From Kangiella sp. (GTDB lineage Bacteria; Pseudomonadota; Gammaproteobacteria; Enterobacterales; Kangiellaceae), in assembly GCA_002733465.1 (NCBI GenBank), contig NVVT01000011.1:91048-140976 (forward strand): a DNA stretch of 49,929 nt, in the 5' to 3' direction. Below, in pieces: positions 6,915-22,169 of the stretch. Numbering within the stretch: the stretch's first letter is position 1; each line of letters starts with the position of its first letter. Position numbers and translations under genes: made by a program. The notes beneath the pieces are model-generated. The model made no database searches and was not told the origin of the DNA. It saw only the letters and a program-made list of their open reading frames with translations.

Positions 6915-8045
6915 TTATTCTTTTACTGGTTGCAAACGTAAAACAGAACCACTGTCACTATCAGTCAAAACATACAGATACCCATCTGGTCCGGTTCGTA
7001 TATCGCGGATCCTTTGATTAAGTTCCTTAAGCATAATTTCTTGTTTAGTGACTTTGCCAGCTTTTAATATTAATCGTCTAACACTTCGTTCAGCTAAAGC
7101 GGCAACAAAGAGGTTACCCTTCCATTGAGGGAAAATATCGCCTTGGTATTCTGTCATGCCAGATGGCGCAATTGATGGCACCCAGTAAGTCACCGGTTGT
7201 TGCATTCCTTTAGCTTTATGATAGGGAGAAATAATCGCGCCCGAATAATCAACGCCATAAGTAATCGCCGGCCAGCCATAATTAAGTCCGGGTTTTATCA
7301 AGTTAAGTTCATCGCCACCTTTAGGACCGTGTTCGTGTTGCCAGATTTTTCCGTCTGCACTTAGTAAAATCGCTTGCGGATTACGATGACCATAGCTATA
7401 GATTTCCGGTAGCACATCTTTTCGTCCGACAAAAGGATTGTCTTGTGGAATACTGCCATCAGAATTGATCCGCAATATTTTCCCGAACATGCTTTTGAGA
7501 TTTTGTGCTTGCTCTCTATAGTTAAATCCATCGCCAGAAGTGACTAACAAAGTGCCATCCTTTAGAAAAACCATACGAGCACCGTAATGATGTGGAGTAT
7601 CTCTACCAGCTATAATAGTGAGAATGACTTTTGTTTGCTGAAGCGACATATCAACTAGTTTTGCACGAATCACTTTGAGCGTATTATCGTTTCTGGATCC
7701 AGAAGAGTAAGATAAATACAGGGTTTTGTTATTGACATAATCAGGATCGAGGATCACATCCATTAGCCCTCCTTGCCCTCGTACAAATAGCTCAGGTAAT
7801 CCTGAGATTTTCTGTTGCAGCAACTTCCCTTCTCGAATAATGCGCAAATTGCCGACTCTCTCTGTGACTAACATGTCATTATTCGGCAAAAAAGCGATGG
7901 ACCAAGGATGATCTAGCCCGTCAGCCACTGTGACGATTGAAAAATCTTTTGCTTGAATGATTTGACTCAATAGCAGAAAACAAAATCCAATAAATGGATG
8001 AAATAAATTGCGATTGCTTTGAATGCCTTGAATGCTATTTTTCAT
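6915..8045 (-). CDS. PQQ-dependent soluble sugar (aldose/sorbosone) dehydrogenase, YliI/Asd-like beta-propeller
   Basis: It has a signal peptide and the motifs LDHPWSIAFLPNNDMLVTER, GGLMDV, YGHRNPQ, EHGPKGGDELNL and NYGWP, which are typical of the sGDH/YliI family. Confidence 0.85.
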   Translation of the reverse strand: MKNSIQGIQSNRNLFHPFIGFCFLLLSQIIQAKDFSIVTVADGLDHPWSIAFLPNNDMLVTERVGNLRIIREGKLLQQKISGLPELFVRGQGGLMDVILDPDYVNNKTLYLSYSSGSRNDNTLKVIRAKLVDMSLQQTKVILTIIAGRDTPHHYGARMVFLKDGTLLVTSGDGFNYREQAQNLKSMFGKILRINSDGSIPQDNPFVGRKDVLPEIYSYGHRNPQAILLSADGKIWQHEHGPKGGDELNLIKPGLNYGWPAITYGVDYSGAIISPYHKAKGMQQPVTYWVPSIAPSGMTEYQGDIFPQWKGNLFVAALAERSVRRLILKAGKVTKQEIMLKELNQRIRDIRTGPDGYLYVLTDSDSGSVLRLQPVKE

Positions 8046-8490
8046 TAGAAAGCTCCTCAGGTTTGGACACAGAAGTTAATTTGGCGAACAACCAACCCGC
8101 TACCATGCAACAAATACCGGCTAATAACATTCCAAAGGATGTTCTAGCAGATGCGAGTAAAGTGACCCCCATAAAAAACTTTATTGAATAAAGAGTCATA
8201 GGGAAAGATGAAAATCCGGCGAACGAATACCACAGTTGACGATTTCCGCCAATAAAGCGATGGGCATAATTTGCAATAACAAATCCAACTAGAAAACTCG
8301 GTGCAATCAGCACTAATAAAGTTACCCCAAGGCCAAACAAATCCAAGGCCGTAGTCATTAAGCGATCGGTAAAAGAAACCGTCATTCCAAAACTGCTAAC
8401 TTCAGCGAGCACTAATTGGGTTGAGACTAAACTATTTAATCCTGCGGCAACCACAACCGACACGAAAAACCGAAAAAACGTTCGAAGCAT
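8035..8490 (-). CDS. Small integral membrane protein (4 predicted TM helices), first gene of the dehydrogenase/receptor operon
   Basis: The sequence is hydrophobic throughout. Its 3-prime end overlaps the dehydrogenase start by 11 nt, which suggests translational coupling. Confidence 0.5.
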   Translation of the reverse strand: MLRTFFRFFVSVVVAAGLNSLVSTQLVLAEVSSFGMTVSFTDRLMTTALDLFGLGVTLLVLIAPSFLVGFVIANYAHRFIGGNRQLWYSFAGFSSFPMTLYSIKFFMGVTLLASARTSFGMLLAGICCMVAGWLFAKLTSVSKPEELSNEK

Positions 8491-10720: not shown

Positions 10721-13654
10721 CTACTCAACCAACTGAATACCTCCTAAATCCGGCAGGTTGCCATTAGCATCTATCGAGTTAATACCCGGGATTAAAATTC
10801 CAGCGTCAACAGCAGGGCTACCCACCGTTAAAGTATAATCTCCAGTCGATTGATTAACAAATTCCGGCGACCCTTCTATACAGTTTTCGCAAACGCCAGA
10901 CGCTGCAAAGTAATCCGAAATATCAAAATAATCCTCACCTTGCCACTGTGCAGGTATACCAGAATCTGAAAATAGTAAATCATAATCCTGCACCCAATCA
11001 AGCGTAGCCGCATTATCTAAAAAGTAATAAATGGCATATTGATCGCCAGACCAAATATTATTTTTCATTACCAATTTAGTCCAATCAGCATCATTGGAAA
11101 CTGAAAAGGCATCATGACCTGTTTCTGTTGTAGTGCCTGTATTGTGATAGATAAAAATATCGCCATAAACTTCATCACCAAAACTAAATTTAACCGCTCC
11201 GGTTTCCCATTCAGTATTAGCGAGATTTTTTAAATCTACCATTAGGTTATCAATAATATAAGTTGGTCCTGCTAAAGCTGGAGCAACAGAAACACCGATT
11301 AATAAAGATTCAAAACGATTATTCTGAATTCGCACATTTGACGAATATCCATCGGTTTCTACACCATCATCGGATAAACTAATAAACCGATTATCAACTA
11401 CATCAGAGTTGCTTGGAATGGTCAAAATTTCAGCGCCTACAATTTTTACACCGTCAAACATTTCATGCACATAATTATCATAGAAGATGGTTCCATATCC
11501 TGTGTATTCATCATTAGAAATATAAAGCGCGCCTCTTTCTAACCAATAATTATCATCTTTCACAGAGTTCCAATCCATTGTGTGCACGCCTTGATCGGAG
11601 AACTCATTTCCCATAACTACTAGGTCAACCACTTTTGATTCTAATCGTATAGCTGTTTGGCTATGTTTAAATCGATTATTTACAATCCAGATTTGATGAG
11701 ATTGATCTGTGATATGAACAGAGGCTGCATGCTCAGCAGAATTATAATTATCAATGGTTAATCCATCAAAAACGATGTTATTCACATCATTCATAATAAA
11801 CGCATGTTTAAGATTGGAAACACTCATTTCATGACCCGTTGGGCTCGATCTATTTGGGAATCTTGCAAAGACTTTTTGTGTTGATGCTTCGGAATAAAAA
11901 CCACCCACATCTTCACCAAGTGCAGAGGACTCTAAATCTGACATTGAAAAATATTTCCACATTCGATTACCATCAAATCCAACATAATAAGTTTCATTAT
12001 TTGGACTATCTAGCGGAGCGCTATAAATATCATTACCTTCACTGCTCCAAGCCGATGCATCAAGCGTATTGGCATCAACGCCACTTAATATAACTTCGCC
12101 ATCACCCGCAGATTTAATGATTGTATAGGCTTGCGATAAGCTATCGCGATTTGCTGGAATAACCACATGTTCATGGTAAGTACCCGTATGAATCAATAAA
12201 GTATCTCCAACAGTTAATTGATCCACACCTTTTTGAATAGTTTCATAGGGTGCTCCATTAGAGCCATTTCCAGTTGAGTCATCGCCGGTTGTCGCTACGT
12301 GAATTTCATTTCCCGTTGAAGTGGGAACCTGACGACTTCTTGCTGTAATGCTTGCCGTTTGCACACCATTATCGACACCATCCGGATCACTAATAGTCAC
12401 TCTCACTTCAACCGTTGCCTCTTCTGGAACAGAAAATACACTTCCAACAAATCGACTAGGATAAGCACCATACTGACTAACCACTATAAAAACTCTAGAT
12501 AAATCATGAACTGGAACGAATCCCGCACCGTTTATATTGGCTTCCATAGAGGCGGTCGCGTTATTATTATCATCACCGGTATAATCGACTTGTATACCAA
12601 TATTATGAAAGGTTGCATGAATACTAATGCCCGTCGCAGTGAGTGAATTTGGCCCGCCTCCTCCGCCATTAGATGCGGTGACAGTAACGCTATCTAAAGC
12701 ACTATCAACCGTTCCATCATTAACGATTAACTCCACTATATAATCACCAACTAAATCCGCGGTAAAAGACGGATTGACTAAACTTGTATCAGAAAGTTGC
12801 GCAGAACTACCACTTGGCTTAATTGTCATGCTCCATTGATAGGTTAAGCTATCACCGTCCGGATCAGAACTAGCACTCGCCGATAAATTAACCGATGCGC
12901 CAGTAGTCACAGATTGATCGCTTCCGGCATTCGCGCTAGGTGATTGATTACCACCGCTACTTTGTGATGCCGTGACGGTTAACGTATCTGATGTACTATC
13001 AACCATTCCATCATTCACAATTAATTGAACGACATAATCACCTGCAAGATCCGCGGTAAAGGTTGGGTTAATCACCGAGCTATCCGAAAGCTCAGCATTA
13101 CTGCTAGCGGGCTTACTACTAATACTCCATTGATAAGTCAATGTATCACCATCAGGGTCACTGCTAGCACCTCCCGATAAAGCAACAACTGCATTTGTAT
13201 CAACCGTTTGATCAGCTCCACCATTTGCAATAGGTGTTTGGTTACTTGATTGTGCATTAACTGTGATGGTCAGCGTATCGGCTGAACTATCAAGGGTGCC
13301 ATCGTTAACAATGAGCTGAATAATATAATCACCGACCGAATCCGGTGTAAAAGTTGGGTTAACGATTGTAGAACTTGAAAGTTGCGAGCTAGTACCAGAA
13401 GGTTGTGAAGTGATACTCCACAAGTAAGTCAAAGTATCTCCATCTGGATCAGAACTTGCACTAGCGCTTAAATTAGTTTCGCTATTAACAGAGACAGTCT
13501 GATCGTTACCAGCACTTGCGGTTGGTGCCCGATTGGTTGAGCCACCATCGTCATTATCGTCGTCGTCGGAGCCACCAGAACTGCAAGCGCTGACTCCAAT
13601 TAATAAGATAATAGTAATAAAAATAACGGGCAATTGTTTTATCAGGTAATACAT
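10721..13654 (-). CDS. Surface lipoprotein with three PKD domains and a right-handed parallel beta-helix (polysaccharide lyase/glycosidase-like) C-terminal region
   Basis: A lipobox is present (LLIGVSAC) followed by an acidic linker (SDDDDNDDGG). There are three PKD-type repeats (SSDPDGDTLTY-W). The beta-helix repeats contain N-rich turns (VNNRF, QNNRF, DNYV, DNLM). Length is 977 aa. Confidence 0.85.
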   Translation of the reverse strand: MYYLIKQLPVIFITIILLIGVSACSSGGSDDDDNDDGGSTNRAPTASAGNDQTVSVNSETNLSASASSDPDGDTLTYLWSITSQPSGTSSQLSSSTIVNPTFTPDSVGDYIIQLIVNDGTLDSSADTLTITVNAQSSNQTPIANGGADQTVDTNAVVALSGGASSDPDGDTLTYQWSISSKPASSNAELSDSSVINPTFTADLAGDYVVQLIVNDGMVDSTSDTLTVTASQSSGGNQSPSANAGSDQSVTTGASVNLSASASSDPDGDSLTYQWSMTIKPSGSSAQLSDTSLVNPSFTADLVGDYIVELIVNDGTVDSALDSVTVTASNGGGGGPNSLTATGISIHATFHNIGIQVDYTGDDNNNATASMEANINGAGFVPVHDLSRVFIVVSQYGAYPSRFVGSVFSVPEEATVEVRVTISDPDGVDNGVQTASITARSRQVPTSTGNEIHVATTGDDSTGNGSNGAPYETIQKGVDQLTVGDTLLIHTGTYHEHVVIPANRDSLSQAYTIIKSAGDGEVILSGVDANTLDASAWSSEGNDIYSAPLDSPNNETYYVGFDGNRMWKYFSMSDLESSALGEDVGGFYSEASTQKVFARFPNRSSPTGHEMSVSNLKHAFIMNDVNNIVFDGLTIDNYNSAEHAASVHITDQSHQIWIVNNRFKHSQTAIRLESKVVDLVVMGNEFSDQGVHTMDWNSVKDDNYWLERGALYISNDEYTGYGTIFYDNYVHEMFDGVKIVGAEILTIPSNSDVVDNRFISLSDDGVETDGYSSNVRIQNNRFESLLIGVSVAPALAGPTYIIDNLMVDLKNLANTEWETGAVKFSFGDEVYGDIFIYHNTGTTTETGHDAFSVSNDADWTKLVMKNNIWSGDQYAIYYFLDNAATLDWVQDYDLLFSDSGIPAQWQGEDYFDISDYFAASGVCENCIEGSPEFVNQSTGDYTLTVGSPAVDAGILIPGINSIDANGNLPDLGGIQLVE
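12671..13531 (-). repeat. Three tandem PKD-domain coding repeats (about 96 aa, about 290 nt each)
   Basis: aa 42-133, 139-229 and 237-328 share A-x-AG-x-DQ-x-V...SASASSDPDGD-x-LTY-x-WS...NP-x-FT-x-D-x-GDY-x-x-x-LIVNDG-x-x-DS-x-x-D-x-x-T-x-T. Confidence 0.85.
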
Positions 13655-13977: not shown

Positions 13978-14604
13978 CTAGTTTTTCTTTAATAATTTTT
14001 CAACTTTTTTAAGCATGTTTGTTTCGTTTAAATAATCAATCGCTATTGGTGTAATAGCTCCATTAATTTGCATCGCCAAACTAGGGAAACTATTCAACCC
14101 TAATTCTCTGCATAATCTAATCTCATTGATTAATTCATTTTGTACTTCTTGAGAATCTAAATCAACTTCAAATTTATTCACATCTAGTTCAATCTCCCTC
14201 GCAAATTCAATTAGTGTATTTTTATCTGACGGATTTTTAGCCTCCAAATAATACCCTTGTTGAATTCTTACTATCATCAGCTCTTCAAATATTTTTCCTT
14301 GCTTACGAGCGGCAATCACGGCGCGGTTAGACGGATAGGTTGATCGTCGAGGTTGACATAGTTTCCAAAACTCAAAGTTAAATTCTGTGTCAGGAATTGC
14401 CTCTTGGATTTTCCTCCATGTTTGTTGTAGCATTAATTGCATAGGTTCGGCCATAGGCTGATCGGAATCTGGAGCTAACCCGCCCAATAATATTTTCACA
14501 TCTAAATTGCTCGGAAGAGCTCCAAATAACGCTTTTCTAACGGGCTCAAATCCCCAACACCAGCTACACATTGGATCATGACTATAAATTAGATAATTTT
14601 CCAT
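13978..14604 (-). CDS. DsbA-family thioredoxin-fold protein (cytoplasmic, no signal peptide)
   Basis: A CxxC active site sits near the N-terminus (DPMCSWCWGFEP). The size, 208 aa, is typical of the family. Confidence 0.75.
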   Translation of the reverse strand: MENYLIYSHDPMCSWCWGFEPVRKALFGALPSNLDVKILLGGLAPDSDQPMAEPMQLMLQQTWRKIQEAIPDTEFNFEFWKLCQPRRSTYPSNRAVIAARKQGKIFEELMIVRIQQGYYLEAKNPSDKNTLIEFAREIELDVNKFEVDLDSQEVQNELINEIRLCRELGLNSFPSLAMQINGAITPIAIDYLNETNMLKKVEKLLKKN

Positions 14605-14752
14605 ATTTCACAAAATTTCCAAATGTTAGAGAAAAATAGGCTTAAATCAATAGATTCAGGCCTAATGTTCGTAATTAATAGTGATAAGACGCTGAAATTT
14701 TACTATAGTTAATAGACGTATCTCCATTAAATACAGGAATATTTTACTCCTA

Positions 14753-16285
14753 ATGTTTCAATCTTCATTTATTACTCGCTGTATTGCCATTTGCTTAATT
14801 TGTTCTATCATAAACGTCGCCAAAGCCAGCGAAAAAGCAACGGTGATTTTTGCCGGCGAAATGACCGAAATAGCGTCCGAAGTAAAAGGCGGTTATGCAG
14901 AGCTTGCCACTCTTCTAAAACAAAAAAGAAAATCCTCTATACCTACCTTCTTTTTATTTGGTGGTGGCAGTTTAGGTCCTAGCACTCTGTCATCTCTAGA
15001 TAGAGGCACTCATATTATTGATCTACTTAACAGCTTAGAACCTGATGCAATGGGAGTGGCCAATAGAGAGTTTAGTTTTTTAGAAGATGAGCTATCTCTT
15101 CGTTCTTATGAAGCTGCCTTTCCTTTAATTGCTAGTAACTTAACGGATAAATTTACTCTTAAAAACCTTGATGGGCTTATTGAAAACACTATCGTACAAC
15201 AAGGGAAATATAGAATTGGCATATTGTCTATTCTCGATAATCGTGTCATAGAGGAATTTGCTGTATCAAGAATAACCATTACCAACCCAAGAACAGCACT
15301 TGAAAAACAATCAAAATTTTTACGAGAAAAAGGTGTCGATCTCATTGCACTAACGTATTCCTCACCTGCTCTACCAATTAGAGAATATTTACACGATGGG
15401 TTAATTGATTTTAGTTTGCGACGCAATGAACATTCAACACCAGAAAATTTTACAAATGGCGAACATCACCCAAATGACGTATTGCTGATTAATCCCGCAA
15501 AGGTAGCCATTATTGATTTAGAGTGGACTAAAAATAAACCAAATTCGCTTAAACTCAATTGGTCTTCTAAAGACCTCAATTTATTTGCAAAAGATCCGCG
15601 GGTTCTTGAACAAGTATTGGGACATACTGAAAGGTTAGCCTTTTTACTTAAACAGCCAATTGGCCTACTGACAACATCTATGAGTACCAAAATAAAAGAC
15701 GTTAGAACTAAAGAGAATGCCTTTGCCAATTTTATAGCTGATACACTGATCGATTATACTGGAGCTGATATTGCTCTAATTAATGGTGGCACTATTAGAG
15801 GCGAAAAATACTACAAAAAAAATTCAGTGATTCGTCGTAGCGACATAATTAAAGAGCTACCCTTTCGAAACAAAATAACATTGTTAGAGGTAACAGGAAA
15901 GCAACTCCGAATAGCACTTGAAAATGGTTTTAGTTTAATTGAACAATTTAAAGGACGCTTTCCTCAAATATCGGGCATGCAAATCAAATATGATTCATCT
16001 CGTCCAGCTGGTGAGCGGGTAGTATCCGTAAAAATTGATGAAAATGAGCTCGTGCTTGAAAAAACATATAAGTTAGTTACCACAGATTATCTTTCAGTAG
16101 GTGGCGATGGCTATGCAAGTTTTAGAAATTTAAAACAATTAAAATTTAACAATCAAATGTCACGATTAGTATCTGACGTTATTATTGATACTATCAAATC
16201 AAAAAAAGAAATCGCTGTTTCGATTGATTCACGTCTTGTGGATATCAGCAGTCCGGAAGTAAGTAAGTCTGGAAGTCTGGAATGA
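14753..16285 (+). CDS. Periplasmic 5-prime-nucleotidase/UshA-family homolog with a degenerate metallophosphoesterase active site
   Basis: It has a signal peptide and a conserved C-terminal 5-nucleotidase_C-type region (FANFIADTLIDYTGADIALINGGTIRG). The N-terminal metal-ligand motifs are replaced: FAGEMTE in place of HTNDxH, FGGGSLG in place of GGD, VANREF in place of GNHEF, and ALTYSS in place of ATHxG. The comparison is with E. coli UshA motifs recalled from memory. Confidence 0.75.
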   Translation: MFQSSFITRCIAICLICSIINVAKASEKATVIFAGEMTEIASEVKGGYAELATLLKQKRKSSIPTFFLFGGGSLGPSTLSSLDRGTHIIDLLNSLEPDAMGVANREFSFLEDELSLRSYEAAFPLIASNLTDKFTLKNLDGLIENTIVQQGKYRIGILSILDNRVIEEFAVSRITITNPRTALEKQSKFLREKGVDLIALTYSSPALPIREYLHDGLIDFSLRRNEHSTPENFTNGEHHPNDVLLINPAKVAIIDLEWTKNKPNSLKLNWSSKDLNLFAKDPRVLEQVLGHTERLAFLLKQPIGLLTTSMSTKIKDVRTKENAFANFIADTLIDYTGADIALINGGTIRGEKYYKKNSVIRRSDIIKELPFRNKITLLEVTGKQLRIALENGFSLIEQFKGRFPQISGMQIKYDSSRPAGERVVSVKIDENELVLEKTYKLVTTDYLSVGGDGYASFRNLKQLKFNNQMSRLVSDVIIDTIKSKKEIAVSIDSRLVDISSPEVSKSGSLE

Positions 16286-16310
16286 TTTTAGTAGGAACAT
16301 TATCCACAAA

Positions 16311-18017
16311 ATGATTAATAATAAAAGAATAGCCGATCAGTCGACAAGTAATGTCTCACAACAAAAATCTAATGTTAAACGAGTATCGTTAGCAACAATA
16401 TTCAGTGGTGTGTTTTTTAGCCTCGTTGTTATCCTTGTAGTAGTTAATATCATTATCTCTTCACGCTTATCTGATTTTCAATCAATCCTTTCTAAGCTGA
16501 CTGTTGATGTCCTGCCTAAGGTGACTATTTCAGGACAAACATTTGATCAAATTAGTCAATTAACTTATTTGACCGCTCGACTTTCTAGCTCACCCTCGCA
16601 AGCTTTTCGGTTAATAGCCTATCGAGATGTTAAAAATAAAATTGAACAAATTGAAAGCTTAGAGCTGGTATCTAATATCGATTCAGCTCTAATCAATCAG
16701 TTAGAATCTATTATTAGTGAATTAAGTGGACTAAACCGCCTAATAGAAAAGCGGATCAACATTCAAATTCAAATTAAATTCCAAGCCGAGAAGATGTATC
16801 AATTGCACTCAGATGTAATGTCAATATCGATTAATCAATTTTTAGCCAATCAAGCATTAAAAACCAACGAACAAATATACTACGCATGGATAGTGGGCTT
16901 TACCGAAATTGTAACTTTATCTAGTAAAGCTCTTGCGACTAATCGATTAAATGAAGTAAGACAAATATCAAATAGTATTAAAGATAAATTTAAAACGCTC
17001 AATAGAAATAGCAATTCACTTAACTTTGAAAGTAAGCAAAACACATTGGACTTGGTCAATCAATTAGAGAACGTGCTGGTCAATTTCGATGGAATGTTGC
17101 CAACAAAAATTAATGAACTAAGGAGTATTGGTCAGGCTATAGGGCGCAGTAATTTCGTTCATAATCTAGTAGTAGATTTTTCCCGACAAGTACAATTTCA
17201 ATCTCAGAATTTAAATGCTACGGTTCTAGAAAATGCGGAAGAAACGACAGAGCTTATAGAAAAAGAGTCTAATTTTATTAAATTAATGGCCGTTTTATCT
17301 ATTTTATTTTTAGTCGTCGCCACTTATTTTTTACATCAAAAAATAATTAAACGATTAGTTAGATTAAATTACCGAGTTTTAAATCGTATCAGCGGTGGTA
17401 GCTTAAATTTGAACTTGAAAGGAAATGATGAAATATCTGATATAGCACAATCGTTTAATTTGCTAATTGAAGAAATTGAAGAGCAAAAACAATCATTGCA
17501 CGAGTTATCTTTAACCGATGGTTTGACTGGCATAGCCAATAGACGCAGTCTTGATGAACATTTATCTAGCGTAATCAATATCGCCACTAAAAACAATTCA
17601 CATTTATCTTTTTTAATGATGGATATTGACTGCTTTAAAAATTTCAACGATCACTATGGTCATTTGGCCGGCGATGATTGCTTAAAAGACATCGTTAATG
17701 CGTTTAGAAACTCGCCATTAAGAAAAAAGGATTTTGTTGCGCGTTTTGGTGGAGAGGAATTTGTTATCATTCTCCCTGATACTAACTCCGAAGGTGCCGA
17801 AAAGATTGCCAAAGCAATGCTCAAAATTGTCTCATCTTTAAAAATTACCCATGAATGGAATTCGGCCTCACCTTACGTCACAATGAGTATTGGTGGTGCC
17901 AGTTTTGACCCTCAAAACCCTATCAGCGACGAAGCTTTACTTAATCAAGCTGATCAGGCATTGTACAGTGCGAAAGAACAAGGTAAAAATTGTTTTGTCA
18001 TGTTTAACGATAGCTAA
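16311..18017 (+). CDS. Membrane-bound diguanylate cyclase (TM, about 270-aa periplasmic helical sensor, TM, HAMP, GGDEF)
   Basis: Two TM helices are present (VFFSLVVILVVVNIIISS and LMAVLSILFLVVATYFL). The HAMP-like region is followed by LTGIANRR. The active-site motif is RFGGEEF, with an I-site RKKD five residues upstream. Confidence 0.9.
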   Translation: MINNKRIADQSTSNVSQQKSNVKRVSLATIFSGVFFSLVVILVVVNIIISSRLSDFQSILSKLTVDVLPKVTISGQTFDQISQLTYLTARLSSSPSQAFRLIAYRDVKNKIEQIESLELVSNIDSALINQLESIISELSGLNRLIEKRINIQIQIKFQAEKMYQLHSDVMSISINQFLANQALKTNEQIYYAWIVGFTEIVTLSSKALATNRLNEVRQISNSIKDKFKTLNRNSNSLNFESKQNTLDLVNQLENVLVNFDGMLPTKINELRSIGQAIGRSNFVHNLVVDFSRQVQFQSQNLNATVLENAEETTELIEKESNFIKLMAVLSILFLVVATYFLHQKIIKRLVRLNYRVLNRISGGSLNLNLKGNDEISDIAQSFNLLIEEIEEQKQSLHELSLTDGLTGIANRRSLDEHLSSVINIATKNNSHLSFLMMDIDCFKNFNDHYGHLAGDDCLKDIVNAFRNSPLRKKDFVARFGGEEFVIILPDTNSEGAEKIAKAMLKIVSSLKITHEWNSASPYVTMSIGGASFDPQNPISDEALLNQADQALYSAKEQGKNCFVMFNDS

Positions 18018-19907: not shown

Positions 19908-21137
19908 TTGGTTTATCTTAAAAAGTATTTTGAGTGTAGGTGTTTTATCAATGATGAATTAAAAGAGCTGTATCTTTGCGTTAGAAAAGAAAGTGAATCA
20001 ATTTCACAACCGCTTTCATCAGAAGATATGCAAATTCAATCAATGGCTGATGCGTCGCCTATAAAATGGCATTTGGCCCATACCTCTTGGGCTTTCGAAA
20101 CTTTTATCCTTAAAGATCAAATTAAGAACTATCAAGCCTTTGATGCAAATTTTGAATATTTTTTTAACTCCTATTACAATGCCATAGGAGAACAATTTCC
20201 TCGCGCCCAACGAGGTCTTCTAAGTCGCCCTAATAACCAAACAATTACCAAATATCGAAAGCATGTAGATATCGCTATGTGCGAACTTATAGAGAATTAT
20301 GAAAATTCGATTAGCAAAGAGACAATTAAATTAATCACTCTTCTGATTAACCATGAACAACAACACCAAGAACTAATGTTGACCGATCTAAAACATGCGT
20401 TGTTTCAAAATCCTACGTATCCAGAATATAAACCAAACTCTCGTTCTAGTCTTAGAAACCTATACATTGATCAACCGTTAACTTGGATAGAATTTGAAGC
20501 TGGTTTATATGACGTTGGCCATCAAGATGAGTCTTTTCACTTTGACAATGAAGGACCGCAACATAAATATTATCTTGAAAGTTTCAAATTAGCATCTCGG
20601 TTAGTTACCAATGGTGAATACCTAAAATTTATGGAAGATGGCGGTTATCAAGATGCAAAATATTGGCTGTCAGAAGCTTGGGGGTCTATCAAAGATAAAA
20701 AAAGTATGGCCCCTATGTATTGGATTAAAAAAGATAATAAATGGTTTCAATACACTCTTTTTGGATTGCAACCGTTAGACTTAAATAAGCCAGTACAACA
20801 TATAAACTATTTTGAAGCTAATGCGTATGCAACTAGCGTTAACAAAAGATTGCCAACAGAACAAGAATGGGAAGTTGCGGCTAAAAATGAACAATTCAAA
20901 TTGAACGAGATGTTTAACCATCTATGGCAATGGACATCGAGTAGCTATTGCGCCTATCCCGGTTTTAAAATTGTTAACGGCGCCATTGGAGAATATAACG
21001 GTAAGTTTATGGTCAATCAATATGTTTTACGTGGTGGCTCAAAAGCCACACCGCAAGGTCATATTAGGGCATCATACCGTAACTTTTTTTACCCTAATGC
21101 CTCTTGGCAATATACTGGATTAAGATTGGCGGAATAG
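19908..21137 (+). CDS. egtB: EgtB-type sulfoxide synthase (DinB_2 plus FGE-sulfatase domains), ergothioneine pathway
   Basis: The DinB-type iron motif is present (SPIKWHLAHTSWAFE...NHEQQHQE). The FGE-sulfatase-like C-terminal half includes VTNGEYLKFMEDGGY, WQWTSS and RGGS. There is no in-frame ATG near the N-terminus, so a TTG start at 19908 is assumed and is uncertain. Confidence 0.8.
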   Translation: MVYLKKYFECRCFINDELKELYLCVRKESESISQPLSSEDMQIQSMADASPIKWHLAHTSWAFETFILKDQIKNYQAFDANFEYFFNSYYNAIGEQFPRAQRGLLSRPNNQTITKYRKHVDIAMCELIENYENSISKETIKLITLLINHEQQHQELMLTDLKHALFQNPTYPEYKPNSRSSLRNLYIDQPLTWIEFEAGLYDVGHQDESFHFDNEGPQHKYYLESFKLASRLVTNGEYLKFMEDGGYQDAKYWLSEAWGSIKDKKSMAPMYWIKKDNKWFQYTLFGLQPLDLNKPVQHINYFEANAYATSVNKRLPTEQEWEVAAKNEQFKLNEMFNHLWQWTSSSYCAYPGFKIVNGAIGEYNGKFMVNQYVLRGGSKATPQGHIRASYRNFFYPNASWQYTGLRLAE

Positions 21138-21170: not shown

Positions 21171-22169
21171 ATGGACGACAACTATTTATATTCAAATAGC
21201 GCTGAACAAGATTATTTCATTAACAGCGGAAGTAATACGACTAATGAAGTTGATGAAATATTTCTTCAAGATGTTATTGAAGGATTAAGCCATTCTCAAA
21301 AATCACTGCCATGTAAATATTTTTACGACGAAACAGGATCTCGGTTATTCGAACAAATTTGTCAACTTGATGAATATTATATTACTCGAACTGAATTAGA
21401 ACTTCTAGAGAATATAAAACAAGAGCTTGCAAATGAAATTGGCGAAAATGCAGTAATCATTGAACCCGGTGCAGGCGCTGGAAAAAAAATACAAATATTA
21501 CTTCATGCATTAGAATCGCCACAGACGTATGTACCAATGGACATCTCAAAAGATTTTCTTTTTTATAGCGCCAAGGTCATTCAAGAAAATTTTCGCAATA
21601 TAGAAGTTTCTCCTATTCAAGGTGATTTTACTAAGCCTATAAAATGGTTAGATAAGAATAGTGACAATCGAATTGTATTCTTCCCAGGTTCAACTATTGG
21701 GAATTTTGAAGCAGAATTGGCAGTCAGTTTTCTACAAAATATGAAAGCTCTTATGGGTAAAAAAGGCTCAATGATTATAGGCGTTGATCGAATAAAAGAT
21801 CGACAAACTTTAGTTAATGCTTATGATGATTCATCAGGCATAACCTCAGACTTTAATAAAAATCTACTTGTACGTATTAATCGAGAACTAAATGGCAATT
21901 TTAATTTAAATGCCTTTCAGCATAGTGCTATTTTTAATGAAGTTGATTCAAGAATAGAAATGCATTTAATTAGTACAATACAACAAGATGTTAGGATAAA
22001 TGGACATGTTATAAGATTTCAAAAAGATGAAGCCATTCATACCGAAAACTCTCATAAATATTCAGATAAAAGCTTTATAAAACTTGTTTCCAAAGCCGGT
22101 CTAAAATCAGTTAAATATTGGGTTGATAGTAAAAATTTATTTAACATTTACTATTTGGTACCTGAATAA
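21171..22169 (+). CDS. egtD: EgtD-type L-histidine N-alpha-methyltransferase
   Basis: KYFYDETGSRLFEQICQLDEYYITRTELELL and EPGAGAGKK are the Methyltransf_33/EgtD signature. The gene starts 33 nt after egtB. Confidence 0.85.
   Translation: MDDNYLYSNSAEQDYFINSGSNTTNEVDEIFLQDVIEGLSHSQKSLPCKYFYDETGSRLFEQICQLDEYYITRTELELLENIKQELANEIGENAVIIEPGAGAGKKIQILLHALESPQTYVPMDISKDFLFYSAKVIQENFRNIEVSPIQGDFTKPIKWLDKNSDNRIVFFPGSTIGNFEAELAVSFLQNMKALMGKKGSMIIGVDRIKDRQTLVNAYDDSSGITSDFNKNLLVRINRELNGNFNLNAFQHSAIFNEVDSRIEMHLISTIQQDVRINGHVIRFQKDEAIHTENSHKYSDKSFIKLVSKAGLKSVKYWVDSKNLFNIYYLVPE

Follow-up and report, generated by a model that had tools for sequence, protein, structure and literature searches.

A degenerate 5'-nucleotidase homolog paired with a membrane diguanylate cyclase in Kangiella: a candidate periplasmic co-receptor for cyclic di-GMP signaling

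The DNA analyzed here, a stretch of 49,929 nucleotides (nt) from contig NVVT01000011.1 of Kangiella sp. (the window), carries at positions 14,753 to 18,017 two adjacent genes, the first encoding a 5'-nucleotidase homolog of 510 amino acids (aa) that appears to have lost its catalytic center (the pseudo-nucleotidase) and the second a membrane diguanylate cyclase. The interpretation that we favor, and hold to be probable, is that the first protein is a pseudoenzyme serving as a periplasmic ligand-binding co-receptor, whose ligand is most likely of the nucleotide or nucleoside type, and that it steers cyclic di-GMP (c-di-GMP) through the receptor encoded downstream. An initial reading of this DNA, made from the letters alone (the sequence-only reading), had arrived at a similar interpretation. 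It is supported by the computation through the loss of the active site, the retention of the nucleotide pocket, the linkage of the two genes and the swapping of the receptor's output, from which we infer ligand binding and contact between the proteins. The two genes, as called from open reading frames (ORFs), are:

14753..16285, forward strand: pseudo-nucleotidase gene (510 aa), encoding a predicted secreted, catalytically degenerate 5'-nucleotidase homolog
16311..18017, forward strand: membrane diguanylate cyclase gene (568 aa)

In the 510-aa protein, the only Pfam match was to 5_nucleotid_C (PF02872; aa 311–457, E = 3e-36). No Metallophos domain was found at E ≤ 0.1, and in the control, E. 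coli UshA, this domain was matched at E = 1.2e-11. A profile of the family aligned to PDB 3ivd over aa 42–487 (E = 2e-47), so the N-terminal half is homologous to the metallophosphatase domain. The AlphaFold2 (AF2) model of the protein, with a predicted local distance difference test (pLDDT) score of 92.8 and a predicted TM-score (pTM) of 0.87, was aligned by Foldseek over its full length to 5'-nucleotidases with E values from 1e-44 to 1e-37 (1.5e-44 for 2z1a and 7e-44 for 3ive), the alignments spanning 520–545 columns. The active 5'-nucleotidases UshA and CD73 swing widely about a hinge from an open to a closed state, and this is visible in the TM-scores of the model, which fall into two classes, 0.70–0.77 against closed-state and 0.51–0.56 against open-state CD73/UshA structures. 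The two-domain 5'-nucleotidase fold, with a calcineurin-like N domain, a linker helix and a C-terminal nucleotide-binding domain, is therefore present in the window protein, which is divided as follows:

14753..14827, forward strand: predicted Sec signal peptide, aa 1–25 (AKA before Ser26), a hydrophobic N-terminus read from the sequence
14828..15592, forward strand: metallophosphatase-like N domain, aa ~26–280, lacking the dinuclear metal site (alignments to 3ivd, UshA, and the family)
15593..16252, forward strand: C-terminal nucleotide-binding domain, aa ~281–500 (PF02872; pocket R318, N344, R349, F371, Y446, D452)

A hydrophobic N-terminus is seen in all relatives of the pseudo-nucleotidase, and in the AF2 model a helix (residues 2–23) precedes the first beta strand. 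The signal peptide claimed at the outset thus stands as far as the hydrophobic segment ending in AKA|S is concerned, while the cleavage signal itself is deduced from the sequence; the protein is presumably secreted.

The catalytic center was compared in alignments to E. coli UshA (sequence from NC_000913.3) and to the second reference, 3ivd, and residue conservation was counted over an alignment of 81 members of the pseudo-nucleotidase family. In the window protein, the HTNDHH motif is replaced by FAGEMTE, with E36 at the position of UshA D41 and no counterpart of H43. GGD is replaced by GGG (D84 to G72), and ATHMG by LTYSS (H217 to Y202/S203). GNHEF becomes ANREF (ANREFS), in which N116 is kept as N104, H117 is changed to R105, and D120 to S108. 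The GGHSQ/GGHSN motif, to which UshA H252 and Q254 belong, was not found in the window protein, and GGH is absent across the 81 members too. The four motif substitutions, first noticed in the window protein, proved to be real and family-wide. The position of D41 is occupied by Glu or Asp in 64 of the 81 members, that of H43 by Pro in 64, that of D84 by Gly in 49 and Asp in 10, that of N116 by Lys in 66, that of the catalytic H117 by Arg in 76, that of D120 by Ser in 69, and that of H217 by Tyr in 62. Of the seven UshA metal ligands (D41, H43, D84, N116, H217, H252, and Q254), none survives as a conserved feature of the family, and the catalytic His-Asp dyad (H117-D120, in GNHEFD) is gone from the window protein and from most of its relatives. 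The claimed loss of the metal ligands, put to a proper alignment and widened to the 81 members, is therefore upheld for the family; for the window protein it holds at most positions and has to be softened at two, where the acidic E36 and the Asn of N116 persist. With the metal center and the dyad gone, we propose that the pseudo-nucleotidase would bind its ligand but not hydrolyze it. In public databases its relatives are annotated as "bifunctional metallophosphatase/5'-nucleotidase" or similar; because the metal site and the dyad are absent, these labels are probably functional misnomers, repeated as a systematic mis-annotation.

In CD73, the adenine of nucleotide analogues is stacked by F417 and F500, D506 contacts their ribose, R354 and R395 contact both phosphate and ribose, and N117, H118, and N245 make contacts from the N domain, according to the passage of the source that describes these contacts (PMC7508162). 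By alignment, R318, R349, F371, Y446, and D452 of the window protein are the equivalents of R354, R395, F417, F500, and D506, respectively. Although the family members are otherwise only ~42% identical to one another, R318, N344, and R349 are found in 81/81 of them, Phe or Tyr at position 371 also in 81/81, and Tyr or Phe at position 446 and D452 in 80/81. N344 would correspond to CD73 N390, which we take to be a ligand contact and which is absent from the passage just mentioned. With the PF02872 match and six pocket residues kept in 80–81 of 81 members, the earlier description of the C-terminal nucleotide-binding domain as intact-looking is confirmed. In the N domain, K/N104 and R105 take the place of CD73 N117 and H118, which are phosphate contacts, and these Lys/Arg residues may be the means by which phosphate recognition was kept without metals. 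At the UshA R375 phosphate-binding position, the window protein and the Kangiella-like proteins closest to it have Ile, Leu, or Thr, a change that may reflect a shifted ligand preference.

In conservation, the degenerate N domain matches the C domain (0.417 vs. 0.421 in mean pairwise identity), and it contains new invariant residues, D83, G85, and H87, within LDRGxHIIDxLN (aa 82–93). R372, in the motif PFRN, is also a family-specific invariant residue. Both domains are under purifying selection, a pattern that marks a pseudoenzyme which has gained a new function and not a gene in decay.

Conservation of the gene pair in other genomes had been named beforehand as a test of the interpretation, and the pair proved to be strongly conserved. 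A scan of one genome per species revealed a pseudo-nucleotidase relative in at least 173 genomes, and the best 80 of the 173 loci were examined. In 79 of these 80 loci, an orthologous cyclase lies directly downstream on the same strand and is matched in both its periplasmic and GGDEF parts; in the sole exception (L075) the contig ends ~490 nt past the pseudo-nucleotidase gene. The commonest spacing is a 4-nt overlap (−4 nt; 33 of 79 loci), which suggests translational coupling. From the side of the cyclase, all three of three distant homologs are preceded directly by a gene with PF02872 as its only domain. An all-versus-all clustering of the ORFs of the 80 loci revealed no third conserved component, the best other neighbor being present in 19/80 and lineage-specific. 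The pseudo-nucleotidase and the cyclase are thus an obligate two-gene module. In a mirror-tree style comparison, which is soft evidence inflated by shared phylogeny, the partial correlations (r) of the two pseudo-nucleotidase domains with the periplasmic domain of the cyclase, given GGDEF, were 0.59 and 0.56, and those with GGDEF, controlled for the periplasmic domain, were 0.19 and 0.26, so that the divergence of the pseudo-nucleotidase follows the periplasmic domain more closely than GGDEF.

The carriers are mostly marine or aquatic Gammaproteobacteria, among them Alteromonas, Paraglaciecola, Glaciecola, Psychromonas, Rheinheimera, Arsukibacterium, Psychrosphaera, Psychrobium, Marinomonas, and Kangiellaceae. 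One locus (L047, NZ_JBGQOM010000001.1), labeled Flavobacterium sp., holds a gammaproteobacterial-type pair at 42% identity, which could be a mislabeled or contaminated assembly, or a case of horizontal transfer.

The cyclase had been described from its letters as having a large periplasmic sensor, a GGEEF site, and an RxxD I-site, and this description agrees with what was found: a domain of ~270 aa lies between two transmembrane helices (TM1, aa 27–50, and TM2, aa 322–343, from hydropathy and conservation), and both motifs are intact. The protein is organized as follows:

16461..17273, forward strand: periplasmic all-helical sensor domain, aa ~51–321 (hydropathy, conservation, AF2), the proposed docking partner of the pseudo-nucleotidase
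17340..17504, forward strand: HAMP/signaling-helix linker, aa ~344–398 (matched by Pfam HAMP at E = 9e-5, which does not reach the curated cut-off)
17505..17996, forward strand: GGDEF domain, aa ~399–562 (Pfam GGDEF, E = 5e-49)
17721..17732, forward strand: RxxD I-site, RKKD, aa 471–474, five residues upstream of GGEEF
17748..17762, forward strand: GGEEF active site, aa 480–484 (sequence motif)

The cyclase is also matched by TIGR00254 (E = 7e-47), and a Foldseek search with the full-length model gave the GGDEF domains of WspR and PleD as the best matches. GGEEF is kept in 78 of 80 cyclase orthologs and the R and D of RxxD each in 77 of 80, while D438, D440, N446, and D455 do not vary in 119 homologs. 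With its GGEEF and I-site intact, the protein has the appearance of an active diguanylate cyclase.

In the AF2 model of the cyclase (pLDDT 84), the stretch from TM1 to TM2 is entirely helical, with seven helices; a continuous helix (residues 262–360) runs through TM2 and is followed by a second one (374–401). The most conserved periplasmic motif, GRxxGRxNFVxNLxxD (aa 274–289), sits just before TM2. No Pfam family matched the periplasmic domain at threshold. Weak, sub-threshold matches to PF21689 (TorS_sensor_domain), all in the same register, were obtained for 5 of 18 diverse members (best E = 1.1e-4) and for the kinase P0298. Comparison of the sensor domain with TorS by hhalign was not significant, whether E. 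coli TorS alone (E = 0.07) or a shallow TorS alignment (E = 0.21) was used. With a deeper sensor profile of 241 sequences, hhalign gave a P value of 0.0013 and a probability of 19%, against a TorS template profile that is itself limited, since most of what the homology search for TorS retrieved was fragmentary or came from closely related enterobacteria. All three comparisons were in the same register. The profile of the sensor domain, run against the sequences of the PDB, matched only designed coiled coils and not TorS, and the matches listed by Foldseek for the full-length cyclase were GGDEF structures only, with none for the periplasmic domain. The resemblance to TorS is accordingly treated here as a lead and not as a result.

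An exhaustive hidden Markov model (HMM) search with the periplasmic domain alone retrieved 199 clusters at E ≤ 1e-3 among 1.84 billion cluster representatives. Most of these clusters are cyclases of ~540–570 aa, and among the 150 clusters listed, 37 exceed 700 aa in length. A scan of 19 long proteins identified a single PAS protein and 18 histidine kinases, most of them hybrids of the type HisKA-HATPase-REC(-Hpt). For eight of the kinases the neighboring genes were looked up, and in seven cases a pseudo-nucleotidase-like gene lies directly upstream. These kinase-linked proteins have NMPEI for NDxH and AKREF for GNHEF, and their pocket residues are kept. The linkage thus follows the periplasmic domain and is independent of the output in the cytoplasm.

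At four of these seven loci, a gene for a REC-GGDEF response regulator comes directly after the kinase (L089, 8392–9327; L090, 3916–4863; L092, 5427–6320; L095, 4261–5202), and in a fifth, L094, a REC-HD-GYP gene (7686–8213) is located further downstream. From the presence of these genes near the kinase, the output of the kinase variants would again be c-di-GMP. The eighth kinase (P0346, L101 4001–6742, sensor match E = 2e-16) has in the upstream position a gene for a solute-binding protein of the TAXI type (L101 2872–3828, forward strand; NMT1_3, E = 9e-76), which has a signal peptide. The upstream slot is therefore the position of a binding partner, and the fact that the pseudo-nucleotidase shares it with a bona fide binding protein, the strongest single argument in this analysis, indicates that the pseudo-nucleotidase is the ligand-binding partner of this sensor domain. 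The sensor domain appears to be a small, unannotated helical family that works through binding partners encoded upstream. In L101, a REC-Hpt gene precedes that of the solute-binding protein.

From these observations, the following mechanism may be proposed, in which ligand binding, the class of the ligand, the physical contact, and the direction of regulation are all steps that we infer. The pseudo-nucleotidase would be exported to the periplasm, where a ligand, most likely a nucleotide or of nucleoside type, would sit in the pocket kept in the C domain and between the domains, with Lys/Arg at the N-domain positions of the phosphate-contacting Asn-His. The ligand would shift the protein between the open and closed states of its hinge, altering its docking on the ~270-aa helical periplasmic domain, so that the hinge motion would be the switch read by the sensor. 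The signal would then run from TM2 through HAMP to the GGDEF dimer and change the synthesis of c-di-GMP, to which the RxxD I-site would add product inhibition. In other lineages, the same pair of co-receptor and sensor would drive a hybrid kinase of TorS type, behind which a response regulator of the REC-GGDEF kind is usually encoded.

Bacteria respond to extracellular ATP, to nucleotides, and to breakdown products of extracellular DNA and, to our knowledge, no dedicated bacterial receptor for extracellular nucleotides has been established. A more specific proposal, which we put forward only tentatively, is that the module is such a dedicated receptor for extracellular nucleotides or nucleosides, with a dead ecto-5'-nucleotidase as its binding subunit, acting as a switch of attachment or biofilm formation on lysis- or host-derived nucleotides in marine, particle-associated Gammaproteobacteria. 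If the ligand is indeed a nucleotide, the module would be the long-missing bacterial receptor for these compounds and a bacterial counterpart of purinergic sensing. The candidate is testable: at least 173 species-level genomes carry the cassette, and strains of Alteromonas, Paraglaciecola, Psychromonas, Rheinheimera, and Marinomonas are available in culture.

Some of this evidence would also suit a subunit that acts without any ligand and that constitutively inhibits, activates, or scaffolds the cyclase from the periplasm, much as YfiR acts on YfiN/DgcN. It would answer to the state of the envelope or of redox, or to sequestration by a third protein, instead of to a small molecule. The obligate linkage and the co-divergence of the pseudo-nucleotidase with the periplasmic domain fit such a subunit equally well, and the invariant D83/G85/H87 and R372 could make a protein-protein interface. 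Hard to explain in the absence of a ligand, however, is the retention of six nucleotide contacts of the C domain at 99–100% in a family of such low overall identity, and the solute-binding protein in the equivalent slot of L101 points to the delivery of a ligand. We regard a ligand-independent role as rather unlikely.

Alternatively, the co-receptor may bind something other than a nucleotide, such as a phosphorylated sugar, polyphosphate, or an NAD-derived or other aromatic metabolite, in a remodeled cleft. The cleft has gained the basic residues K104, R105, R372, R362, and R402, which are without counterpart in the active enzymes. Relatives of the 5'-nucleotidases take diverse substrates, including UDP-sugars, NAD, cyclic dinucleotides, and thiosulfate conjugates (SoxB), and the NCBIfam matches of the protein span such families. 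What has been kept, however, is exactly the adenine-stacking aromatic pair and the ribose-binding Asp, Asn, and Arg, which favors a nucleoside moiety and makes a ligand of another class unlikely.

That the protein is still an enzyme, working by another mechanism that is perhaps mononuclear or metal-independent, with the cyclase sensing the product, seems to us quite improbable. The two-domain architecture required for catalysis is intact, and the acidic residue at the D41 position, the Asp/Asn near H252 (63 of 81), and the Tyr at H217 speak for an enzyme; but H43, H217, H252, the catalytic H117, the bridging Asp, and the dyad partner have been replaced in the window protein and most relatives (by Pro, Gly, Arg, Ser, and Tyr), the Metallophos HMM is blind to the N domain, and Lys/Arg fill the metal-proximal positions. 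One particular candidate, a single-metal Tyr/Asp site like that of purple acid phosphatases, was judged unlikely, with the bridging Asp and all of the His ligands missing. Fortuitous proximity of a decaying nucleotidase gene and an unrelated cyclase is barely conceivable and effectively refuted: adjacency alone would be no proof of interaction, but here it is found in 79/80 loci amid a variable context, survives the change of output, and involves two domains under purifying selection.

Several points weigh against the ligand-binding co-receptor that we favor. Because the acid at the D41 position and the Asp/Asn in the H252 region persist in most of the family, a single residual metal or cation site might be present. 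In the window protein, Ile314 occupies the UshA R375 position, where 67 of the 81 members have Arg, so its recognition of phosphate may be weaker than that of most relatives. The fold of the sensor domain is not confidently assigned, the mirror-tree correlations are soft for the reason given above, and the evidence for ligand binding and for a complex with the cyclase is indirect.

As to the locus itself, the ORFs of the pair end at 16285 and begin at 16311, in agreement with the 25-nt gap reported initially. The noncoding parts are:

14605..14752, forward strand: upstream intergenic region of 148 nt, lying between the pair and the divergently oriented DsbA-like gene and presumed to hold the promoter of the pair
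16286..16310, forward strand: 25-nt spacer of the two genes, without a terminator-like site

A sigma-70-like match (GTGATA-17-TATAGT) is located at 14681–14709, upstream of the pseudo-nucleotidase gene, in a scanned region where promoter-like matches were not above shuffled expectation (17 found vs. 15 expected). Terminator-like matches at the window locus equaled the shuffled expectation, and no Rfam element was found in 14605..14752. The divergent upstream neighbor is a DsbA/thioredoxin-like gene (13978..14604), and the next gene 3' of the cyclase encodes a small VOC/glyoxalase protein. These two and the other neighbors in the window, an ion channel and EgtB/EgtD-like genes, are not kept with the pair in the 80 loci. 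Several metagenome contigs carry the window locus in identical gene order, and the nearest named relatives are uncultured Kangiella (77% identity) and Kangiellaceae (63%). In one metagenome assembly of the same organism (L097, JGI 3300005043), the pseudo-nucleotidase gene was called at just 289 aa (2106–2975). The product of this call, P0010, is 100% identical over 57% of the query, and it is probably an artefact of assembly or gene calling, not a true truncation.

Elsewhere in the window, a c-di-GMP-I riboswitch (RF01051; 56 bits, E = 2e-8) was detected at 2258–2348 on the reverse strand, 12 kb from the cyclase. The ORF on its 3' side, on the same strand, runs from ~2161 to the start of the window, which it leaves, and encodes a repeat protein, secreted and more than 720 aa long, that is likely a c-di-GMP-controlled adhesin. 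Also on the reverse strand (10721–13654) is the gene for a secreted 977-aa protein in which three repeats of the PKD type are combined with a right-handed beta-helix, probably a surface protein or one that acts on polysaccharides. On the forward strand, an EgtB-like gene (FGE-sulfatase plus DinB_2; 19908–21137) and a gene for an EgtD-like, histidine-specific methyltransferase (E = 2.5e-107; 21171–22169) form a putative ergothioneine-type biosynthesis pair.

No publication describing a GGDEF or kinase receptor with a nucleotidase-like partner came up in a search of the literature, and in a 2022 review of sensory inputs to c-di-GMP the words nucleotidase, nucleoside, and extracellular ATP are all absent. 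Comparison with known systems was therefore made component by component. With the 5'-nucleotidases of the UshA/CD73/3ivd type, the window protein has in common the two-domain fold, the pocket residues of the C domain, and secretion, and it differs from them in lacking the dinuclear metal site and the catalytic dyad. On these grounds, it would be classified among the pseudoenzymes of the 5'-nucleotidase superfamily.

Among the receptors, YfiR-YfiN (DgcN/TpbB) is similar in that a two-TM HAMP-GGDEF cyclase is under the control of a periplasmic protein, exerted via the periplasmic domain of the enzyme, and the NCBIfam model for DgcN/YfiN aligns to the HAMP-GGDEF part of the cyclase (E = 1e-39, far below the cut-off of that model). 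YfiR, however, is a small repressor with an unrelated fold, and YfiN has a PAS-like periplasmic domain, whereas the sensor found here is a long helical bundle.

The arrangement had been likened at the outset to that of NspS and MbaA, in which a classical solute-binding protein, NspS, is the partner of a GGDEF-EAL protein, MbaA. In this polyamine system of Vibrio cholerae, the genes are bicistronic, with that of the binding protein upstream, and the two-TM c-di-GMP enzyme is modulated via its periplasmic domain by the partner in its ligand-bound form (PMC11194511). The analogy is fair, but the window partner hits only PF02872, the receptor has GGDEF without EAL, and the two systems have no more than the operon logic in common; closer parallels are TorT-TorS, for the helical sensor, and PruR-DcpA, for the degenerate enzyme as partner.

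TorT-TorS, which senses trimethylamine N-oxide in E. coli and Vibrio, also consists of a periplasmic binding protein encoded beside its receptor, and the receptor has an all-helical sensor of ~270 aa, built of two stacked four-helix bundles, between two TMs, followed by HAMP. Furthermore, the relatives of the window sensor that sit on HisKA-HATPase-REC-Hpt hybrid kinases have the architecture of TorS. The partner, on the other hand, has the 5'-nucleotidase fold, also of two hinged domains, where TorT has that of the periplasmic binding proteins; the output of the window receptor is a GGDEF domain fused to it, where TorS is a kinase; and the sensor is at most a candidate homolog of that of TorS.

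The closest conceptual precedent is PruR-DcpA, the pterin system of Agrobacterium tumefaciens, in which PruR is a SUOX-like protein without the Mo-coordinating Cys that acts as a periplasmic ligand binder (PMC11194511). Its gene lies directly upstream of that for DcpA, a two-TM diguanylate cyclase(-phosphodiesterase), and the pair of partner and periplasmic domain is also found on histidine kinases (PMC11194511). A degenerate enzyme as partner, the upstream slot, and the kinase variants are thus all as in the module described here; the differences are in the folds, with SUOX and a periplasmic loop of ~140–150 aa there, and a 5'-nucleotidase and a helical domain of ~270 aa here. With its different partner fold, its unassigned sensor domain, and its receptor without EAL, the window module belongs to none of the TorT-TorS, NspS-MbaA, and PruR-DcpA families. 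Receptors for c-di-GMP and two-component signaling that depend on a periplasmic partner are known, and what is new is the 5'-nucleotidase fold of the partner and the small uncharacterized family of the sensor. Following the precedent of SUOX in PruR, the 5'-nucleotidase fold would join the short list of enzyme folds turned into a periplasmic co-sensor.

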